From: a virus
Lineage: Duplodnaviria; Caudoviricetes
Virus record (IMG/VR): IMGVR_UViG_3300029309_000155
Span: 1 to 33,895 of that record
Length of the DNA stretch: 33,895 nt
Direction: 5' to 3' (one strand)
The notes beneath the pieces were generated by a model, which saw nothing but the letters and a program-made list of their open reading frames with translations, ran no database searches and was not told where the DNA came from. The position numbers and the translations under genes are program-made. Of the stretch, positions 788 to 24,552 are shown piece by piece. How positions within the stretch are numbered: position 1 is the stretch's first letter; every line of letters begins with the position of its first letter.

Positions 788-1342
788 ATGGATAGTATTC
801 CTTCTATGTTTAGTGGTTTCAATATCAAAAAATATAAGTCAATAAAATATCCTTCAGATATTAGTTTGAAAACTCTTAATGAAATAAAATCATTACAAAC
901 TCAAAAATTAGATATACCATTTGCTAACAAGTATGACGATATACATGAGTCGTTTAAACGTCTTTTTGTAAATAGAAAAAGAGAATATCCTTCTGAGTTA
1001 GTTATGGATTTAATAGGTAAATCCAAACCTATAATAATGCGTATAAAAAATTATCACGACAGGAAAAGACCAAACGTATTAGCTAAAAACTTTGGCATAG
1101 ATTTAAAATATCATAAGATGGATAGTGCTCAAACTCCTGCATTTCCTTCTGGACATTCTGCTCAAAGTAAATTAATAGCTTTAGTTTTATCTGACATGTT
1201 TCCTGAAATGAAAAAAGAGTTTACACAGGTTGCAGAAAATGTTTCTAAAAGCAGAATTGTTGCCAGGGTACATTATAAATCTGATAAAGACATAGGTGAA
1301 AAATTAGGACAAGATTTATATAATCACCTAAATAACGCCTAA
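788..1342 (+). CDS. PAP2 / vanadium haloperoxidase-superfamily phosphatase, soluble
   Basis: All three catalytic motifs are present: K-x6-RP (KNYHDRKRP), PSGH and SR-x5-H-x3-D (SRIVARVHYKSD). No obvious signal peptide or TM helix. Confidence 0.85.
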   Translation: MDSIPSMFSGFNIKKYKSIKYPSDISLKTLNEIKSLQTQKLDIPFANKYDDIHESFKRLFVNRKREYPSELVMDLIGKSKPIIMRIKNYHDRKRPNVLAKNFGIDLKYHKMDSAQTPAFPSGHSAQSKLIALVLSDMFPEMKKEFTQVAENVSKSRIVARVHYKSDKDIGEKLGQDLYNHLNNA

Positions 1343-1387: not shown

Positions 1388-2527
1388 ATGGAAATAAAAG
1401 TAAAAGCAGTGGACGGTAACACTCAAAAATCAAAAGCCGAAATAGAAGAGCAGTTGTTAAAAAAACACGAAGCTCAACAACAAGAAACTCAAGCGGAGGA
1501 AAAACCTGAAAAGGTTGAACCAAAAGCAGAAGAGAAGGAGAAACCAGCTGAGGAAACTCCAGCTGTAGAAGAAAAAACTCCCTCGTCAGAGTTAAATGAC
1601 GAACATGTTCTTAATTTTATTAAAGAGAGGTACAACAAAGACATCAACTCAGTTGAAGAATTATTTGAAACTAAAGAATCAAATCCAGATTTACCTGAAG
1701 ATGTTAAATTGTATTTTGATTATAAGAAAGAAACAGGCCGTGGAATCGAGGACTTTTATAAATTACAAAAGAACTACGATGACATGGATGAAGATTCGGT
1801 TTTAGCTGATTATCTTGGTGTTCAAGAAGAAGGTCTTGACGCTATAGATATTCAAGATATCATGGACGACAGATTCGGATACGATAGTGAAGAAGATGAC
1901 GAAAAAGATATTAAGAAGAAAAAGTTAGCTAAAAAGAGAGAGCTTGCAAAAGCAAGAAAGTTTTTTAAAGAACAGAAAGATAAGTATAAAGTTCCCCTTG
2001 AGTCAAGTGGGGGTGGATTATCTGATGAACAAGAAAACAATCTTAATGCTTACAAGACAATGTTAGAGGAATCTAACTCTCAGAAGGAAAGCTTCCAGCT
2101 TATGAGAAAAAATTTTGAGGAGCGTACAAACAAAGTGTTTGGCGAAGAATTCAAAGGTTTTGAGTTTAACGTTAGCGACGACAAATCAATTCTCTATAAA
2201 CCAGGGACTGCTGAAGAATTAAAGAACAAGCAAATGGATTTTAATAATTTCATCTCAAAATATAATGATGAGAATGGACTTATGAAAGACGCAGCAGGAT
2301 ATCACAGAGCTATGTCAATAGCCATGAATCCTGAAAAGTTTGCAAAGTTCTTTTATGAGCAGGGTGTTGCTGCAACAGTAGATGATGTAGCAAGAAAATC
2401 TAAGAATATCAATATGGATGTTCGTAGAGCCCCGCAACTTAGCACGAAAAATAGTTTAAAAATAAAAGCTGTAGGAGATACTTCGAGTGGTAGAGGTCTC
2501 AAAATTAGAAGTATTAAAAAAGTTTAA
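1388..2527 (+). CDS. Putative capsid scaffolding/assembly protein
   Basis: Very acidic and helical with a low-complexity N-terminus; directly upstream of the major capsid gene. Confidence 0.6.
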   Translation: MEIKVKAVDGNTQKSKAEIEEQLLKKHEAQQQETQAEEKPEKVEPKAEEKEKPAEETPAVEEKTPSSELNDEHVLNFIKERYNKDINSVEELFETKESNPDLPEDVKLYFDYKKETGRGIEDFYKLQKNYDDMDEDSVLADYLGVQEEGLDAIDIQDIMDDRFGYDSEEDDEKDIKKKKLAKKRELAKARKFFKEQKDKYKVPLESSGGGLSDEQENNLNAYKTMLEESNSQKESFQLMRKNFEERTNKVFGEEFKGFEFNVSDDKSILYKPGTAEELKNKQMDFNNFISKYNDENGLMKDAAGYHRAMSIAMNPEKFAKFFYEQGVAATVDDVARKSKNINMDVRRAPQLSTKNSLKIKAVGDTSSGRGLKIRSIKKV

Positions 2528-2547: not shown

Positions 2548-4026
2548 ATGGCAGTAAATATTAGCCCAGGCTTCGATTTACAACCTTCGGCTCAACAGGT
2601 TCCTGTTGAAACGAATTATATCAAAGATTTTGATTTCTTGAATCAGTATCTACCAGATACTTACGAGAAAGAATTTGAAAGATATGGTAATAGAAGCATT
2701 AGTTCATTCCTACGTATGGTAGGAGCAGAAATGCCTTCTAACTCTGACCTTATTAAATGGTCTGAGCAAGGAAGATTGCATATCAAATACAAAGCGTGTA
2801 CTTCTGGAGCAGCAGCAGGTACAGACGCTGGAGCAGTTTGGACAATTCCAAATAACATTACTAACTTTAATCCTGCGTTAGCTAACCCTAACACAGCGAG
2901 AGATGCTAAGAATGTTATTAGAGTAGGTCAAACTGTAATGATTTCAGACAACACTCCAGGTTCTACGTTACAAAACAAAGCGATTGTAACAGCTGGACCA
3001 ACTGACGCAAACCCTAACCAATTTACAGTAGCTTATTATGAAGCAGCTGGACAGGCTATGGCAGCGGGAGTAGCGTGTGATGTTTTCATTTATGGTTCTG
3101 AGTTCGCAAAAGGAACTGAAGGAATGTCTGGTTCATTAGAAGCAGATAGCTTCTTCTTTGACAACAAGCCAATTATCTTAAAAGATAAATACTCTGTATC
3201 AGGTTCTGATATGGCGCAGATTGGCTGGGTTGAAGTAAGTGGTGAAGACGGAGTAAGTGGATACTTATGGTATCTAAAGTCTGAGCACGATACAAGACTA
3301 AGATTTGAAGACTACATGGAAACAGCATTAGTTGAAGCAGTACCAGCAGAAGCAGGTTCTGGTGCTGGAGATGTCCTACAGGGATTAACTCCAGGTGGTG
3401 GTGGTTCAGTTGCTGGACTAAGTGGTTCTAAAGGTGTATTCTTTGAAGTAGGTGCAAGAGGTAATGTTTATGGTGGTGGTAACCCAACAACATTAGCAGA
3501 CTTCGACAGCATTATTCAAAGATTAGACAAGCAAGGTGCAATCGAAGAAAACGTAATTTTCTTAAATAGAAACTTCTCGTTTGATATTGACGATATGTTA
3601 TCCACACAAAACTCTTACGGAGGTGGTGGAACATCTTATGGTCTATTTGATAATGACGAAGAGATGGCACTAAATCTTGGTTTCTCTGGATTTAGAAGAG
3701 GTTATGACTTTTATAAGTCTGACTGGAAATACCTAAACGACCCAACAATGAGAGGTGGATTAGTAGCAGGTGGTATCAATGGACTATTAGTTCCAGCTGG
3801 TTCTACTTCAGTTTATGACCAAATACTTGGTAAAAACGCTAAGAGACCATTCTTACATGTAAGATATAGAGCTTCAGAAGCTGAAGACAGAAGATATAAA
3901 ACTTGGATTACTGGTTCAGCTGGTGGTGCGAGAACATCTTCTTTAGATGCTATGGAAGTTAACTTCTTATCTGAAAGAGCAGTTTGTGTATTAGGTGCAA
4001 ACAACTTCTTCTTATTCCAAAACTAA
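2548..4026 (+). CDS. Major capsid protein
   Basis: 492 aa; N-terminal FLNQYLPD.YEKEFERYGNR and W.EQGRLH motifs recalled from Bacteroidota podovirus capsid proteins; follows the scaffold gene and precedes a strong terminator. Confidence 0.8.
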   Translation: MAVNISPGFDLQPSAQQVPVETNYIKDFDFLNQYLPDTYEKEFERYGNRSISSFLRMVGAEMPSNSDLIKWSEQGRLHIKYKACTSGAAAGTDAGAVWTIPNNITNFNPALANPNTARDAKNVIRVGQTVMISDNTPGSTLQNKAIVTAGPTDANPNQFTVAYYEAAGQAMAAGVACDVFIYGSEFAKGTEGMSGSLEADSFFFDNKPIILKDKYSVSGSDMAQIGWVEVSGEDGVSGYLWYLKSEHDTRLRFEDYMETALVEAVPAEAGSGAGDVLQGLTPGGGGSVAGLSGSKGVFFEVGARGNVYGGGNPTTLADFDSIIQRLDKQGAIEENVIFLNRNFSFDIDDMLSTQNSYGGGGTSYGLFDNDEEMALNLGFSGFRRGYDFYKSDWKYLNDPTMRGGLVAGGINGLLVPAGSTSVYDQILGKNAKRPFLHVRYRASEAEDRRYKTWITGSAGGARTSSLDAMEVNFLSERAVCVLGANNFFLFQN

Positions 4027-17946: not shown

Positions 17947-20900
17947 ATGAATGAGATTCAATTAAAAATATTAAACGATTTATTTACATTGGTTCCCGAG
18001 GGAACCTTTAGTGATATAGAGGAGTTGCAAGAATTTATTGAAGACAAAGGTGTAGAGGATATTTTTACATTAATGCCTGAAGGTGTCTTTGAAGATGAAG
18101 AAGAGTTTGGGGAGTTTATAACACCCTTAAAAAAAAAAGATTTTTCTGGAGATGGACCTCAGCAGCCCGTGGATTCGGGTACGCCAACACCTGCAGAAGA
18201 GACTCCTTCGCCTCAAGGTCCTGGTTCTTCGGCTATACCAGATAGAAGTGTAAATAGAATTGACCCTCGTTTAAACGACCTCATAAATCCCGATACCGCT
18301 CTTCCCGATAAACCAGTGGGTACTAAGTTTGGTGCTAACGTAGATGTTGGTGAGAAGAATACTTGGCTTGAAGAAATGCTGGGTAAAAATACAGTTACAG
18401 ATTTTTTTGGTGATATGTACAGAGCAGGAGCTCAAGGTCTTGGTCAAGGTGCTACGATTGATGATGCTCGAAGATTATTTATATCAGGTAGTGAAACTTC
18501 TTCGGAAGATGTAGAAAAATATATTGCTGCAGTTAAGAACATGGACAACTATGGTATGTCTGATGAAATGAAATCTTTCAATAGAATCTATGAAAATAAT
18601 GGAGGAGGAGTAATGGGATTTATTTTAGGTGTGGGTGCAAATCCGTCAGTCATTGGTCAGTTGTTTGTGTCATCAGTTGCATCAATGGTAAACCCAGATG
18701 TTCTTGCAGGTGTTGGAGCAGGTGCAGCTATAGGTGCTGGTGTTGGAGCTGGAACAGGTGCAGTAGCTGGAGCCATAGGTGGACCAGTAGGTAGTGGTAT
18801 AGCAGGTTTAGTAGGTGGAGTAAGTGGTGGTATAAACGGTGCCATTTTAGGAGCAAGTGCCACACTTGAAACTGGTTTAGCCTTCACAGAATTTATGAAA
18901 GAAGAAATAGACCGAGCTGGATTAAAATTTGATAAAGAAAGTGTAAGAAAAATATTAGAAAACCCTACTGCTATGCAATCCATAAGAAACAAAGCTATGG
19001 CAAGAGGTCTTGTTATAGGTACTATAGATGCGTTTACACGAGGTTTTGCCAGTAAGGTAGGGGGTAGTAGTATCAAGGCTGCAAAAGCCGCAGATAGAGT
19101 TATTACAAAAGGAATGAAGGCGCGAGCTGGTTTGAAAGCAGCTGGTATCGAAGCTATTGGGGGTTCAACTGGTGAAGCTGCTGCAAGAGTAGTTACGGGA
19201 CAAGACATGGATGTAGCTGAGATTGGATTTGAAGGTATAACAGGACAAGCTTCTTCTGTTTTATCAGTTCCCGCTGCTGTTAGTGGAAACAGCTTAACAG
19301 ATATAGGTAGGAACATGGTAGGTAAAGGTAAAAACTTTTTTAAACCGCCAAGCTATGGTTACTTAACAAAGAAAGGTACTAAGATGTTAATGAGCAAGGA
19401 AGAAGTAGAAGCTGCTATTGACTCCATGACTGACCAAGAGATAATCGACTCACAGTTTGTTATTGAAAATGATACGGCTCTGGAACAGAAGTATGAGAAC
19501 AGAAGACAAGAAGCTAATTTAAATCAACAGACACCAGATAATTTAAAAGGTGAAAGAAGAAAAAAATATATTGAGCTGCTACAGGAAAAAAACAATATGG
19601 AAAATCCTGATAGTCCAGAAAATAAAGAACGAATAAAAGCTATTGATGAAGAGCTTCAAACTATTGTAGACGAAGCAGAAACAGACCTAAGTGAAGAGGT
19701 TCAAATATCGGAGGACGTAAAAAAATTAGTATCAATATCACGAAATGAAGCAATACAAGCTTTACTTGCAGAGGGTATTGAAAATCCTACTGATGAACAG
19801 GTTAATAATAAACAAAAAGAAATGCTTAAATTAGCAGTAGCAGCTGCTAAAAAAGCTGGTAAAGAAGTAAGTAGGTTTAAGAACGTAAAAGATTTAGATG
19901 ATGATGAAGCTAAAGAACAAGCTAAAGACGAACTTATATCTGAAGGTATACTTGAACCAACAGACCAACAAATAAACGAAAGAGCCAATGCCATTCAGGA
20001 GTCAAGCGCAACGCAGGTGGATGTACAAGAATCTACCACAGATAGCCCAGAAGTGGGAGAAGGAGACGCCCCAGGGGTCGTTACCCCAGAGAGTCAGACC
20101 CAAGAGCAGGTTGCTGACCAGCCTATTGAGACGCAAACGCAAGAGGAAATAAAAGTAAATGTTGCTCCTTTCTTTGAGACATCCATAGAATCTACAACAG
20201 AAGCAGGTGGTTTAAGAAAGTCACCAGAATACCAACAATACAAACAAAGCCTAACTGACATAGCAAATGATTTAGGAGTTGAGGTTGAAGTTGATGAAGC
20301 TGTAGGCGGCTATGTAAATGAAGCAGGAACAAAGATTAGAGAGATAAGTAACGTAGTAAGATTAAAAAACGCAACATTAGACCAAGCTTCTCAGTACGCA
20401 GCTATTACAGCAGCGTTAGCACCCGAAGTACAAGAGTCTTCCATCGCAGCAGAATATACTGTTGATGGTGCAGAAAACCATAACGGAAACGAATTAACCA
20501 TTAAAGTTTCTGATAGTGAAGGCACTTTTCAAGCATTAAAAGAAGTAGGTATTGATGAGTACACTTTGGATACGTCAAATAATTTACTATCTTTGCTGGA
20601 CATATTTGATTTTAGTGACCCACAAGCGGACGCAAAATTAGATGCGTTAATAGATTTATTAGATAATAAAAATATAACTTATGAAATCACAGACAAAAAA
20701 GCAATCAACTCAAGATTTATTGGCAAGGAGAGCAGGCAGCAGATTCTTTCAGATGGTAGACAAAGTGCCATTCAACAACAGCAAGAAGGGACAAGTCTTT
20801 ATAAGAAAATCCTCTCAGCGATAAATCGTGACGCTCAGAAGCAAGGCATATCTCCCAACGAATATATAGGTGCACAAGAAGCACCGCAAGTCACGGCAGA

Positions 20901-23900
20901 CCAAAGTCGTGTAGAAAAAATAGCACAAGACATAAAGAAAAAAATACTTAGTCGTAGACCAAAGTCTATGAATCCTGCTTACATTGTAAAGCAAGTAACT
21001 GAATATTTAACACAAACCAAACTACGTTCTCAACTTAATGACGTTCAGTTTGATGCGTTAGTTAGAAAGGTTACGGAAGATTTAGGAGTCAAAGTTAAGA
21101 AAGGACCAAGTGTTAAAAAAGTAATAGGTGATAGTCAAGGTGGACCAAAGGTTGCAGATAAAAAAGTTGTAGTAAATGAAAGAGTAGCACTTAAAGACCA
21201 GATAAGAAAAGAAGCTAAAGCTGCAAGAGAATCAGCAGCTGCTTATAAAAAGTCTATGAAAAACATAGCTGGTTTAATAAGTAGCTTTGGAAGAAACCTT
21301 GGTAAGATTTCACAGTCTAAAGTCAAAGCAATTACAAAAAGATTTGCAAATGTAAATCTTAATAATAAAAAATCCGTAGATAGCTTCCTTACATTTGTTG
21401 ATAATGTATTTACTAAACAAGATTATGTTCAGCGTTTAAACACTGCCAGGAAACAATCAAGAAAAGCTAAGAAACAGGTTGGTGGAGCAAAGACTGGTGT
21501 ATTACCAGCTGATTTAAAAGCCGCGTTGAAGACAGTGTTCAGTATAAATCCTGCACTAATACCAGAACCTTTATTAGATTCTTTTATAGAACTTTCCGCT
21601 GAGTATGGTTCAGGTAAAAAAGTTCCTGCGTTTAAAAAAGCTCAAGAAACTTTACCAAAAGCTTTAGAGATAATTAATGGTGTCCAGGAAAATATAAACC
21701 AAGATATTGATTCTATAAAAGCTGAGCCTACACCTGATGATTTTGATGCAGATGCAACTATTAAAAACATAAGTGAAAAACAAAAGACAGTTACTCAAGC
21801 TGACTTAAATAATATACCAGATAAAAGAGCTAAAGAAGATGCACGTCAAATATTAAACATGACTCCAGAACAAATGAAACAACTGGATGATTCTGATTTA
21901 AAAGTACTGGAGCAGATAATAGAAAATATTAAGAATGGTTTTGCTGGTAAACCAGTAACTGATATTGCAACTAAACTAAATGCTATAAAAAGTTTTGAGC
22001 AAGTCAACCCTATTATAAAAGCGTTTACACAAAACAAATATGTAGATGCTATAACTAATCTATATAGTAAAATTAAAGCTTCAAGAACAGGTAGAGGATT
22101 TTTAACAGAAAGAATACGTAGTCTTTCAACTTTCTTTATTGATGATGTGTTTGGAAATAGAAATAGTAAAACGCTTTATAACAATACGTTTGGAAAGATA
22201 GCCAGGTCTTTGGAAACAGTTAAGTCTAAAATAAAAAGATTAGAAGTAAAAGTAAATGCGGCTGAGAAATTATTAAACACTGATGGTAATAGATTAGGTA
22301 TAACAAGAAATGCTTTAGTCAAAAAGAAATACAAACTTAGAATGTTACAATTACAAAGAGAACATGAATCTAATTTTGTTGACGGTAAACCTAACGCAAA
22401 GACTCCTCCTGCTATAGACTTTATAAATAAAACATTAGAAGCTATAGAGAATGATGGTATTTTAAATGAACAAGATGCAACAATACTTAACGAATTAAAA
22501 ACAGAGTTTGAAGTAGATGGACAAATAAGTTTAGAGAAGATTGAAAACTCTTTAACTGCTAAAGAAAAGAAAGCCCTGGCGTTATATGATGACGTTAATA
22601 ATTCATTGGCGTCTGAAGCTGAATATAACGCAGCTAATTTACATGGTCAACCAGTTGAGTTGTACAATAATTATAGTCACCGTTATGTTATAGATGCCAA
22701 GACTAAGAACGAACAGACTGTTCAAAAATTAGTTGATAAAGTAAATAACAATATAACAAGCACTAAATCAAATACAATAGTTACCCGAACAAATGGAGCT
22801 AAACCTATTAGTTTTGACCCAAGTTTCTCAGCAATGCGTGGAGCTCAAGAAACTATTATGGATTATGAGATGACGCAGACATTAAGAGAAGTAGAACAAA
22901 CTCTTAACAAAGTTAAAGAAGATGCAAAAAGTGGAAGTAAAGACGCAAAGAAGGCTATTAATGCTATTATAAAAGCAAAGACCGAGATAGTAGACATCAT
23001 ATTAAAAGGAACTTACACCGATACGCCAAGTGGGAACTTGAGTGCAATGAACTTGATGCGTCTTGGTTATCAAGCTACCCTTGGTTCGATATACAGAATG
23101 GGAGCTGAAATTGTAGCTAACTTTGGTATCATGTTAAAGAATCCTGCCATGGCAGCACGAGCTTACAAAAACTTTGCCACGTGGGTTGCTAATCCAAAAA
23201 ATGTTACAGCAGGTTTTGATGCCATGACAAATCTTAGGTCATCACAAACAAGTAAATTGTATAATGCTGACGTAATGGAATCAAAGCACACACAAATGTC
23301 AGACTACGGTGGGTTAGATGCTAAAGCTGGCTCAGCTACAAATCGTGTAAACAATGTCTTTGGTGAGATTTTAAAATATACAGGATTAAAAATGACAGGT
23401 AGAATAGTAAATCAAATAGCATCAAACATAATAACTTTTCCTGATAAAGCTATGTCTCGTCCTTTATGGTTTGGTAAATGGGCAGATTCTTTTGAAGCCC
23501 AGGTAAAAGAAATGACAGGAGAGGATGTTAAAATTACTAAAAAAGATTTTCAAGAAATAGCAGATGGAACATCAAGGTATTTATCTCCTGAGTTTAAAGA
23601 AGCTCGAGATAATGCTACAGCTATGGCAGATGGTGAAGTAGTTACTATGGCTACCTCTAACAATGCAGCTGATGCTATTATTAAAAACATGAGGAGACCA
23701 GGAGAAAAATCAGGTATGGCAATTTACCGAATGGCTAATTCATTTATGGCAAGATTTAGTTTGTTTGAGTTTGCAACAGCTCGTAACGCAATCTTTGCTT
23801 TATTTAATAAAGGTGACTTGTCAAAAGCTGAAGCAGCTGGCCTACTTGCTGGTATAACGTTTAGAATGTCTGCTTATATGACAACGTATGGTATGTTAAC

Positions 23901-24552
23901 AAGTATGTTAGATGAAGAGTTGTTTGATGCGGAAGATGATAAGGAAGAAAACATAGAAGATGTAATGGCAAGACAAATAGTGGGAGCAATGATATCGCTT
24001 CTTGCAAGACAGTCATTAGGTAACATTCCTATGTTGCCAATTAACTTCTACTTAGAAGAGTCTGTGAACAGAAATCTATTGGAAGATTTAAGAGATGGTG
24101 AAGAGTATGATAAATATAAACACTCTATTGTATTTAGTCAGATAGGTGTTGAAGATTTAAAAAAGAAAAGCTTAGAGGAAATATTCCTTGACTCTTTTGC
24201 TGGACCTTATGGACCAATGATAAATACTTTGTCACGTTTGCTGAAGGTAGGTGTCACATCTCAGACAGCAGTAAAACCTGAGACAAGACAGAAAGCAATG
24301 GACGAAATAGAAAATAGATTAATAATTGAAGTGTTAGGTAATTTAGGATTGGTTCCGTTTTATAAAGATGTTAGAAGAGTTGTAATTAAAGATATGTTTC
24401 CTCCTGAAACTGAACTTACACCAGAACAAAAGAAACGTTTGAAAAAAATAAAAGAACAAGAGGAAAAAAGACGACCACAAAGAGAAAGAAGTGGTGACAG
24501 AAGAAAGACAAAAAACAGAAGGCCTAAAAGAGTAAGAGTAAACAGACGATGA
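17947..24552 (+). CDS. Giant internal virion / polyvalent-type ejection protein, 2201 aa
   Basis: Glycine-zipper hydrophobic segment, low-complexity linkers, long helical C-terminal region and Arg-rich tail; last large gene of the virion module. Confidence 0.6.
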   Translation: MNEIQLKILNDLFTLVPEGTFSDIEELQEFIEDKGVEDIFTLMPEGVFEDEEEFGEFITPLKKKDFSGDGPQQPVDSGTPTPAEETPSPQGPGSSAIPDRSVNRIDPRLNDLINPDTALPDKPVGTKFGANVDVGEKNTWLEEMLGKNTVTDFFGDMYRAGAQGLGQGATIDDARRLFISGSETSSEDVEKYIAAVKNMDNYGMSDEMKSFNRIYENNGGGVMGFILGVGANPSVIGQLFVSSVASMVNPDVLAGVGAGAAIGAGVGAGTGAVAGAIGGPVGSGIAGLVGGVSGGINGAILGASATLETGLAFTEFMKEEIDRAGLKFDKESVRKILENPTAMQSIRNKAMARGLVIGTIDAFTRGFASKVGGSSIKAAKAADRVITKGMKARAGLKAAGIEAIGGSTGEAAARVVTGQDMDVAEIGFEGITGQASSVLSVPAAVSGNSLTDIGRNMVGKGKNFFKPPSYGYLTKKGTKMLMSKEEVEAAIDSMTDQEIIDSQFVIENDTALEQKYENRRQEANLNQQTPDNLKGERRKKYIELLQEKNNMENPDSPENKERIKAIDEELQTIVDEAETDLSEEVQISEDVKKLVSISRNEAIQALLAEGIENPTDEQVNNKQKEMLKLAVAAAKKAGKEVSRFKNVKDLDDDEAKEQAKDELISEGILEPTDQQINERANAIQESSATQVDVQESTTDSPEVGEGDAPGVVTPESQTQEQVADQPIETQTQEEIKVNVAPFFETSIESTTEAGGLRKSPEYQQYKQSLTDIANDLGVEVEVDEAVGGYVNEAGTKIREISNVVRLKNATLDQASQYAAITAALAPEVQESSIAAEYTVDGAENHNGNELTIKVSDSEGTFQALKEVGIDEYTLDTSNNLLSLLDIFDFSDPQADAKLDALIDLLDNKNITYEITDKKAINSRFIGKESRQQILSDGRQSAIQQQQEGTSLYKKILSAINRDAQKQGISPNEYIGAQEAPQVTADQSRVEKIAQDIKKKILSRRPKSMNPAYIVKQVTEYLTQTKLRSQLNDVQFDALVRKVTEDLGVKVKKGPSVKKVIGDSQGGPKVADKKVVVNERVALKDQIRKEAKAARESAAAYKKSMKNIAGLISSFGRNLGKISQSKVKAITKRFANVNLNNKKSVDSFLTFVDNVFTKQDYVQRLNTARKQSRKAKKQVGGAKTGVLPADLKAALKTVFSINPALIPEPLLDSFIELSAEYGSGKKVPAFKKAQETLPKALEIINGVQENINQDIDSIKAEPTPDDFDADATIKNISEKQKTVTQADLNNIPDKRAKEDARQILNMTPEQMKQLDDSDLKVLEQIIENIKNGFAGKPVTDIATKLNAIKSFEQVNPIIKAFTQNKYVDAITNLYSKIKASRTGRGFLTERIRSLSTFFIDDVFGNRNSKTLYNNTFGKIARSLETVKSKIKRLEVKVNAAEKLLNTDGNRLGITRNALVKKKYKLRMLQLQREHESNFVDGKPNAKTPPAIDFINKTLEAIENDGILNEQDATILNELKTEFEVDGQISLEKIENSLTAKEKKALALYDDVNNSLASEAEYNAANLHGQPVELYNNYSHRYVIDAKTKNEQTVQKLVDKVNNNITSTKSNTIVTRTNGAKPISFDPSFSAMRGAQETIMDYEMTQTLREVEQTLNKVKEDAKSGSKDAKKAINAIIKAKTEIVDIILKGTYTDTPSGNLSAMNLMRLGYQATLGSIYRMGAEIVANFGIMLKNPAMAARAYKNFATWVANPKNVTAGFDAMTNLRSSQTSKLYNADVMESKHTQMSDYGGLDAKAGSATNRVNNVFGEILKYTGLKMTGRIVNQIASNIITFPDKAMSRPLWFGKWADSFEAQVKEMTGEDVKITKKDFQEIADGTSRYLSPEFKEARDNATAMADGEVVTMATSNNAADAIIKNMRRPGEKSGMAIYRMANSFMARFSLFEFATARNAIFALFNKGDLSKAEAAGLLAGITFRMSAYMTTYGMLTSMLDEELFDAEDDKEENIEDVMARQIVGAMISLLARQSLGNIPMLPINFYLEESVNRNLLEDLRDGEEYDKYKHSIVFSQIGVEDLKKKSLEEIFLDSFAGPYGPMINTLSRLLKVGVTSQTAVKPETRQKAMDEIENRLIIEVLGNLGLVPFYKDVRRVVIKDMFPPETELTPEQKKRLKKIKEQEEKRRPQRERSGDRRKTKNRRPKRVRVNRR
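18129..18138 (+). other. A10 homopolymer, candidate frameshift/slippage site
   Basis: TTA AAA AAA AAA GAT in frame 0, followed by a GC-rich 100 nt in which both alternative frames stay open. Confidence 0.4.
19988..20152 (+). CDS. Nested (+1 frame) 54-aa basic protein MPFRSQAQRRWMYKNLPQIAQKWEKETP...
   Basis: ATG 19988 to TAA 20150-20152, translated by hand. About 54% GC by my count. Resembles small stand-alone phage proteins of the MPFKS.AQRRWM type that I recall. Confidence 0.7.
   Translation: MPFRSQAQRRWMYKNLPQIAQKWEKETPQGSLPQRVRPKSRLLTSLLRRKRKRK
20681..20824 (+). CDS. Nested (+1 frame) 47-aa basic ORF MKSQTKKQSTQDLLARRAGSRFFQMVDKVPF...
   Basis: ATG preceded by AATAAAAATATAACTT (Bacteroidota-type initiation context); ends at TAA 20822-20824. 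Confidence 0.4.
   Translation: MKSQTKKQSTQDLLARRAGSRFFQMVDKVPFNNSKKGQVFIRKSSQR

Follow-up and report, generated by a model that had tools for sequence, protein, structure and literature searches.

We identified a nested open reading frame (ORF) of 54 amino acids at 19988..20152, on the plus strand of the window (the whole stretch of 33,895 nucleotides of viral DNA that was analyzed), which is almost certainly a real gene. It extends from an ATG at 19988 to a TAA at 20152, lies entirely in the +1 frame of a giant gene of 2201 amino acids (17947..24552, plus strand), and encodes a member of what we refer to as the MPF[KR]SxAQ family. Judged from sequence, one stretch of DNA likely makes two proteins here, the smaller of which gene finders miss. 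The explanation that we favor, to which as a whole we give somewhat better than even confidence, is that a conserved +1-frame gene with its own start encodes a basic nucleic acid binder made late in infection, and that the acidic linker which the giant gene reads from the same bases is the shadow of this gene.

The nested ORF lies in a giant gene of the virion module

The window record spans 33.9 kb, with an estimated completeness of 56%. Its likely major capsid protein (2548..4026, plus strand) falls near those of Elemovirus, Callevirus (Pervagoviridae), and Pachyviridae; it is 39 to 51% identical to the capsid proteins of cultured Flavobacterium elemo, Maribacter, and Cellulophaga phi40:1 phages and 25% identical to those of phi18:3-type phages. 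Placed by this protein, the window likely derives from a marine, Flavobacteriia-type podophage. Portal, scaffold-position, capsid, muzzle-like, and tail genes are followed by genes of 281, 718, and 2201 amino acids, after which the replication genes lie on the opposite strand. A PAP2-superfamily gene (788-1342, plus strand) is inserted between the portal and scaffold-position genes.

The giant gene is the last long gene of the virion module and likely encodes an ejection or cargo protein, as suggested by its position; its protein family, phrog_32588, has no assigned function. In phi40:1, the last long gene of the virion module encodes a structural protein detected by mass spectrometry (MS), and no sequence match was found between it and the window giant. 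Across the overlap, the host frame reads NAIQESSATQVDVQ... and forms an acidic linker (giant residues 681 to 736; 19987..20154, plus strand) that contains 13 Asp or Glu residues and 1 Lys or Arg.

The original prediction had described a complete 54-residue +1 ORF, and rereading the sequence yielded the same coordinates and peptide. The raised GC content and G/C-ending host codons that it reported were likewise recovered: GC is 88/165 (53%) in the overlap versus 36% across the giant gene, although 51.5% is reached at 18706, so that the overlap is only narrowly the highest-GC 165-nucleotide segment of the gene, and host-frame third-position GC is 0.47 in the overlap versus 0.23. When host codons were redrawn 20,000 times, an ATG-started, open +1 frame survived in 1.0% of draws. 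ORF length and GC content alone are weak evidence for a gene; what goes beyond chance is family homology together with frame-specific selection. These two properties, along with the composition of the peptide (6.7 kDa, 17 Lys or Arg, 2 Asp or Glu, and a pI of about 12), bear out the earlier proposal of a real gene for a strongly basic protein. The giant gene contains a second ATG-started +1 ORF (56 amino acids, 18344-18514, plus strand), and a further +1 ORF elsewhere in the window (69 amino acids, 1596-1805, plus strand) is not kept as an ORF among relatives.

The nested peptide belongs to a widespread family of microproteins

A word-index protein search with the nested peptide found no homologue. 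An exhaustive phmmer search did reveal the stand-alone family whose sequence pattern the original prediction had given, with 442 cluster representatives at E ≤ 1e-3; in nearly all of the best 150 of these, the match begins at residue 1. M1, P2, S5, Q8, P17, and P33 are invariant in the family, and W23 and L32 are nearly so. The profile of phrog_1375 (Barnyard gp9-like small proteins with no assigned function) is matched by 43 of 49 aligned homologues at E ≤ 1 (best, 8.6e-7) and weakly by the window peptide itself (E = 0.032), whose membership is indicated by this profile match together with the presence of the invariant N-terminal core residues. Unlike the nested window copy, the annotated members of phrog_1375 are free-standing. 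Free-standing family members occur in cultured phages and on bacterial chromosomes, relatives of Barnyard gp9 alone accounting for 486 actinophage records, and homologues remain 40 to 70% identical across unrelated sipho-, myo-, and podophages and chromosomal loci devoid of phage genes. Unannotated free-standing homologues are found in phages C75C1 (OQ984151.1 34579, L056) and S-CBS2 (NC_015463.1 34225, L223).

AlphaFold2 modeled the nested peptide with helices at residues 6 to 15 and 17 to 26 plus a tail helix (mean pLDDT, 85), and the predicted fold is a two-helix core (residues 6 to 26) followed by an Arg/Lys tail. Searches of the PDB by sequence and by fold gave no match to the family, and Pfam and NCBIfam gave none for the nested peptide or 49 members. 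The nearest named cluster by language-model features was DUF3008 (PF11450; 0.85 and 0.86), which serves as a lead only; the DUF3008/Pfam search had no match for the 49 members, 3 cellular members, or 5 genomes with cellular copies, and control genomes were likewise without a match. The idea that the family corresponds to the Patience/Adjutor capsid accessory protein was dropped because in Barnyard that annotation is on gp3 and the homologue is gp9. A literature search, mostly outside subscription journals, found no paper on the family or the overlap.

Several variants were observed. The module also forms the N terminus of longer proteins with InPase, cupin, IF3-C, and DUF5661 domains (P0008, P0041, P0088, P0110, P0135, and P0137; L043-L050 and L052), some of which may be read-through or chimeric products. 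Other nested copies carry a conserved cysteine pair (L079:34367-34495; L076:35959-36090; L123, L125, L130, L131, and L133), possibly a disulfide or metal site, and some of these have a 10-residue insert (68 amino acids).

A search of genome collections gave 227 loci, and among the top 80 of these about 50 belong to a subfamily that is homologous to the phage family (hhalign probability, 99.1) and that shares the motif MPFKSxAQRRKFAELL..., a six-residue insert, and long Lys/Arg/Ala tails (L342-L399, genome_contigs), which we take to be histone-like. Its hosts are metagenome-assembled genomes, for the most part named as Acidobacteria and Gemmatimonadota, with Chloroflexi and Betaproteobacteria also represented. 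No phage structural family was found when 107 proteins adjoining 22 of these loci were searched against Pfam. The corresponding Atlas cluster has 3076 members and no Pfam family.

The microprotein may bind nucleic acid late in infection

We next considered what the microprotein might do. A nucleic-acid-binding role late in infection has, in our judgment, just over an even chance of being correct. The pI is near 12, free copies carry the basic tail just as nested copies do, and the tails of the chromosomal homologues resemble those of histones. Of 26 unrelated loci, 11 adjoin terminase or portal genes and 4 adjoin tail genes, counts that have no formal control. Small basic DNA-condensing proteins, including the histone H1-like bacterial and viral core proteins, combine a small folded core with a Lys/Arg-rich tail; the resemblance of the microprotein to them is in composition only, as no sequence or fold match was found. 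Among the structures and characterized families searched, none supported a function for the microprotein, and a predicted complex of the capsid protein with the nested peptide scored 0.00, which is uninformative either way.

According to the favored explanation, translation of the small gene would begin at an internal start of its own within the late virion-gene mRNA. The resulting 6.7-kDa basic protein would bind and compact nucleic acid, probably the DNA of the phage at about the time of packaging. A ribosome translating the giant gene would, from these bases, make a flexible acidic linker.

It seems unlikely that the two-helix core instead acts as an accessory to assembly, or as a tag for packaging, by binding a head protein (the portal, the capsid lumen, terminase, or the giant protein). 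The frequent position beside terminase or portal would fit such a role, as would the homologue directly after the portal gene in Mycobacterium phage Helpful (gp10), the nesting in a scaffold-position gene, and the occurrence of the module in front of InPase, DUF5661, cupin, and other domains; head-protein binding would also explain why the module caps longer proteins. Homologues 40 to 70% identical in unrelated tailed phages and in chromosomes without nearby phage genes argue against it, however, and we favor a general target, such as nucleic acid, over a capsid protein because the genes surrounding the Lys/Arg/Ala-tailed subfamily are ordinary chromosomal ones. Virion MS lists do not include two homologues, which counts against head-protein binding and also against a virion location in the favored explanation: 201phi2-1 gp383 (a distant homologue; weak match, E = 4e-4) does not have the MS note carried by its neighbor, and gp81 of PDRPxv, another distant homologue, is not among the 12 MS-identified virion proteins given in the accessible part of that phage's description (PMC9366990). 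Small proteins rich in Lys and Arg readily escape detection after tryptic digestion, and in this case trypsin leaves one usable peptide. Proteomics tables in literature supplements could bear on the presence of the family in virions.

These same two absences, together with the location of PDRPxv gp81 outside the virion module, would suit a nonvirion factor whose target is conserved host machinery (the ribosome, RNA polymerase, or the nucleoid) and whose place in late operons serves timing alone. The chromosomal subfamily points the same way, as does the strong conservation of the family among hosts from several phyla. We nevertheless regard such a factor as improbable in view of the repeated tight linkage to packaging and ejection genes, and no analysis here indicated a specific host target.

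Selection acts on the +1 frame of the overlap

To assess conservation, we searched for relatives using queries from the giant protein only and kept the inner sequence out of the search. A query from the giant N terminus recovered 19 loci; the nested ORF is present in 16, and the other 3 end before the site. An alignment of the giant C terminus recovered 59 loci, 7 of which were uninformative (6 truncated upstream of the site and 1 lying at the edge of a contig). Among the 52 informative loci, some of which are duplicates or close relatives, 48 are nested (one with undetermined bases at the start codon), 2 have a free copy directly after the giant's stop, and 2 lack the gene in a complete giant. 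Thus, the +1 ATG and the absence of +1 stops, both of which had been put forward as checks, are kept in relatives at 48 of 52 loci. Related giants without a nested copy include those of L107 and L138, and the L107 genome (94% complete) has no detectable copy anywhere. No family match was found in the cultured phages phi40:1, phi18:3, and Panino. The small gene is dispensable in some relatives.

For 35 distinct cores filtered for canonical spacing, we calculated pN/pS across the initial 27 codons. Across three divergence classes (66 pairs at ≥85% identity, 182 pairs, and 347 pairs), pN/pS was 0.135, 0.14, and 0.36 in the +1 frame and 1.6, 1.9, and 1.6 in the host frame. In a control region, the 90 codons just downstream in 9 close relatives, the pattern was opposite (host frame, 0.30; +1 frame, 1.05), and the +1 frame contained 7 to 13 stops per 90 codons. 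Purifying selection therefore acts on the +1 frame of the overlap and not on that of the giant; the reversal is large, although the pairs are phylogenetically nonindependent. Synonymous variation in the host frame, which had been expected to be reduced, is indeed low (pS of 0.06 in the overlap versus 0.58 downstream in 9 close relatives). In these respects the two frames behave as a dual-coding pair: the inner ORF is intact in relatives and under purifying selection, and the outer frame stays open.

Basic +1 "shadow" ORFs of ≥30 amino acids are common in acidic genes, including those of phages, which raises the possibility of an untranslated relic, with a conserved acidic linker merely yielding a basic +1 ORF. 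This is very improbable: it is the linker that is unconserved at the amino acid level and the +1 peptide that is conserved, redrawn host codons gave peptides at most 59% identical to the real one, and even a diverged copy (L071) retains the family's invariant residues.

Start signals precede the nested ATG across relatives

The predicted internal start region of the window (19963..19987, plus strand) has A at −12 and −13 (19976 and 19975) but C at −3 and G at −6. Adenine at −12/−13 stimulates initiation in Flavobacterium johnsoniae, according to the accessible part of that study (PMC6847099). At 76 Bacteroidota-type nested starts, A occurs at −12 in 84% and at −13 in 91%, versus 40% and 36% at other +1 ATGs; these 76 giants have no Shine-Dalgarno sequence at the nested ATG, and their start region is unstructured (median percentile, 0.96). 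In all eight giants of non-Bacteroidota type, which come from phages whose genes use Shine-Dalgarno sites, the nested ATG has a Shine-Dalgarno sequence at a percentile of ≥0.91 among the +1 ATGs of the gene. The own start signal is thus strong across the relatives as a group but weak for the window copy, whose profile percentile is 0.56, and the upstream A-richness may partly reflect host Lys, Glu, and Asn codons. RNA contigs from four metatranscriptome runs (small shares) do not span the overlap.

Access to the +1 ORF by ribosomal frameshifting, to make a shortened giant with a basic tail, would fit its location after the N-terminal part (22 to 45% of the giant's length) but is extremely improbable, given that the +1 frame is closed 0 to 24 codons upstream of the nested ATG in 31 loci (4 codons in the window, by an in-frame TAA at 19973-19975), that the ATG is always family position 1 and preceded by start signals, and that free genes make the same peptide.

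The small gene is probably older than the host frame

We examined 149 distinct loci and classed 100 as nested, namely, 79 in the linked giants of this phage group, 11 in scaffold-position genes, 4 and 4 in other giants, and 2 that were set aside. All accepted nested cases are in the +1 frame; L179, L214, and L345 satisfied the rule for nesting, although each is probably a free gene within GC-rich DNA. No similarity was found by phmmer between 5 giants of this group and 8 other giants plus 2 scaffolds, and nested copies thus occupy at least three host genes that lack detectable similarity to one another. The other host giants match DarB-like or unknown-function PHROGs, and some adjoin ejection or transglycosylase genes. 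In the scaffold-position cases (L039:3494-3619, L209:3419-3544, and 9 more), the copy lies near the N terminus of the gene between portal and capsid. At the 80 loci with the closest capsid genes, no copy was found in the 4 kb around that gene, and so nesting of this kind is a feature of a more distant clade.

In this phage group, 17 free copies begin no more than 10 nucleotides from the stop codon of the giant. Of 19 giants with a free copy or none, 16 were examined (several are cut at the 5' end), and the shadow linker was found in none of these 16, consistent with the proposal that NAIQ/DAIQ linkers are the shadow of the gene, as NAIQ, DAIQ, and DAVQ linkers are absent where the gene is free. 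Ten genomes searched whole contained one copy (8 genomes) or none (2 genomes). In quick trees of the giant C-terminal part, which leave out L127 (frameshifted range) in later versions, the free copy L116 falls among nested ones, and monophyly of the nested copies was rejected (p-AU = 2e-39; 18 rows, with the group named after the tree was seen); domain swapping could yield the same picture as release of L116.

The small gene is very probably older than the linker, and hence than this part of the host frame, because no host gene approaches the family in breadth of distribution and no independent constraint acts on the linker. This is the reverse of classic overprinting, in which the inner protein is limited to carriers of the outer gene and has no homologues elsewhere, a pattern not seen here. 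Thus, the overlap described as overprinted in the original prediction stands, and its polarity is probably reversed, with the acidic linker as the newer frame. We infer that the overlap arose by capture of an older free gene, with silent positions changed such that the host frame stays open.

Codon usage bears the mark of both frames. The shifted frame is closed in 38 of 38 free genes tested (1 to 10 stops each) and open in nested copies; two exceptions whose shifted frame is open, both GC-rich and probably free, were excluded. The Phe3 codon is TTC in 84 of 86 nested copies versus 12 of 38 free copies, because TTT followed by an Arg or Lys codon creates a host-frame stop, and third-position T is avoided in nested copies (5.7% versus 21%). 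Recoding to keep the host frame open accounts for the GC peak of the overlap.

Comparison with known overlapping genes

Small phage genes embedded out of frame are already known from the Rz/Rz1 spanins, which, in the accessible part of the source, are embedded in lambda and T7, overlapped in P2, and separated in T4, with the embedded forms most parsimoniously derived from separated genes (PMC6139136). The microgene is similarly embedded whole and has free-standing versions in other phages. Unlike Rz1, the nested peptide has no Cys, hydrophobic signal, or lysis or lipoprotein features, and it lies in the virion module. Rz and Rz1 form one complex, whereas the microgene has mutually dissimilar hosts; it also has nested and free forms within one gene family, whereas spanin families, as far as that source describes them, are shared between overlapped and separated forms only (PMC6139136). 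Out-of-frame remodeled genes of Escherichia coli take part of a protein from an alternative frame of another gene, and the remodeled regions are described, in the portion of the study available, as short and disordered (PMC8788219). Here, unlike in those cases, the donor frame survives whole within the recipient gene and is subject to purifying selection. What is new is the family, its likely older-than-host polarity, and its nesting in several unrelated genes.

A broader picture, which we hold tentatively and at less than even confidence, is that a histone-like microprotein widespread in phages and soil bacteria is needed late by many podophages and that its gene has repeatedly entered, and later left, disordered acidic linkers in virion genes that are unrelated to one another, with the shifted frame serving as a harmless Glu/Gln-rich spacer. 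If true, this would be a portable passenger gene invisible to annotation, and a general route to overlaps by capture rather than de novo birth. The overlap would be a clean and repeated case of capture of an old gene, and since nested, adjacent, and absent states occur in one phage group, the origin of such overlaps is traceable. It also exposes a large family of basic microproteins, with no assigned function, in phages and bacterial chromosomes.

Even in cultured phages, this conserved protein escapes gene callers when its gene lies within a giant virion gene. In the elemo record NC_055854.1, the nested copy spans 52512-52640. Flavobacterium phage elemoE_6-9C carries a 42-amino-acid copy nested in a giant structural gene, and 68 cultured elemo records match it; the nested gene is unannotated, and among the matches listed, the locus is annotated as "structural protein" only. 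As cultured carriers exist, both the overlap and the function of the microprotein are directly testable. On the opposite strand of the window giant, an antisense ORF of 219 amino acids (18657-19316, minus strand) with no Pfam or PHROG match covers the Gly/Ala-rich part of the gene.
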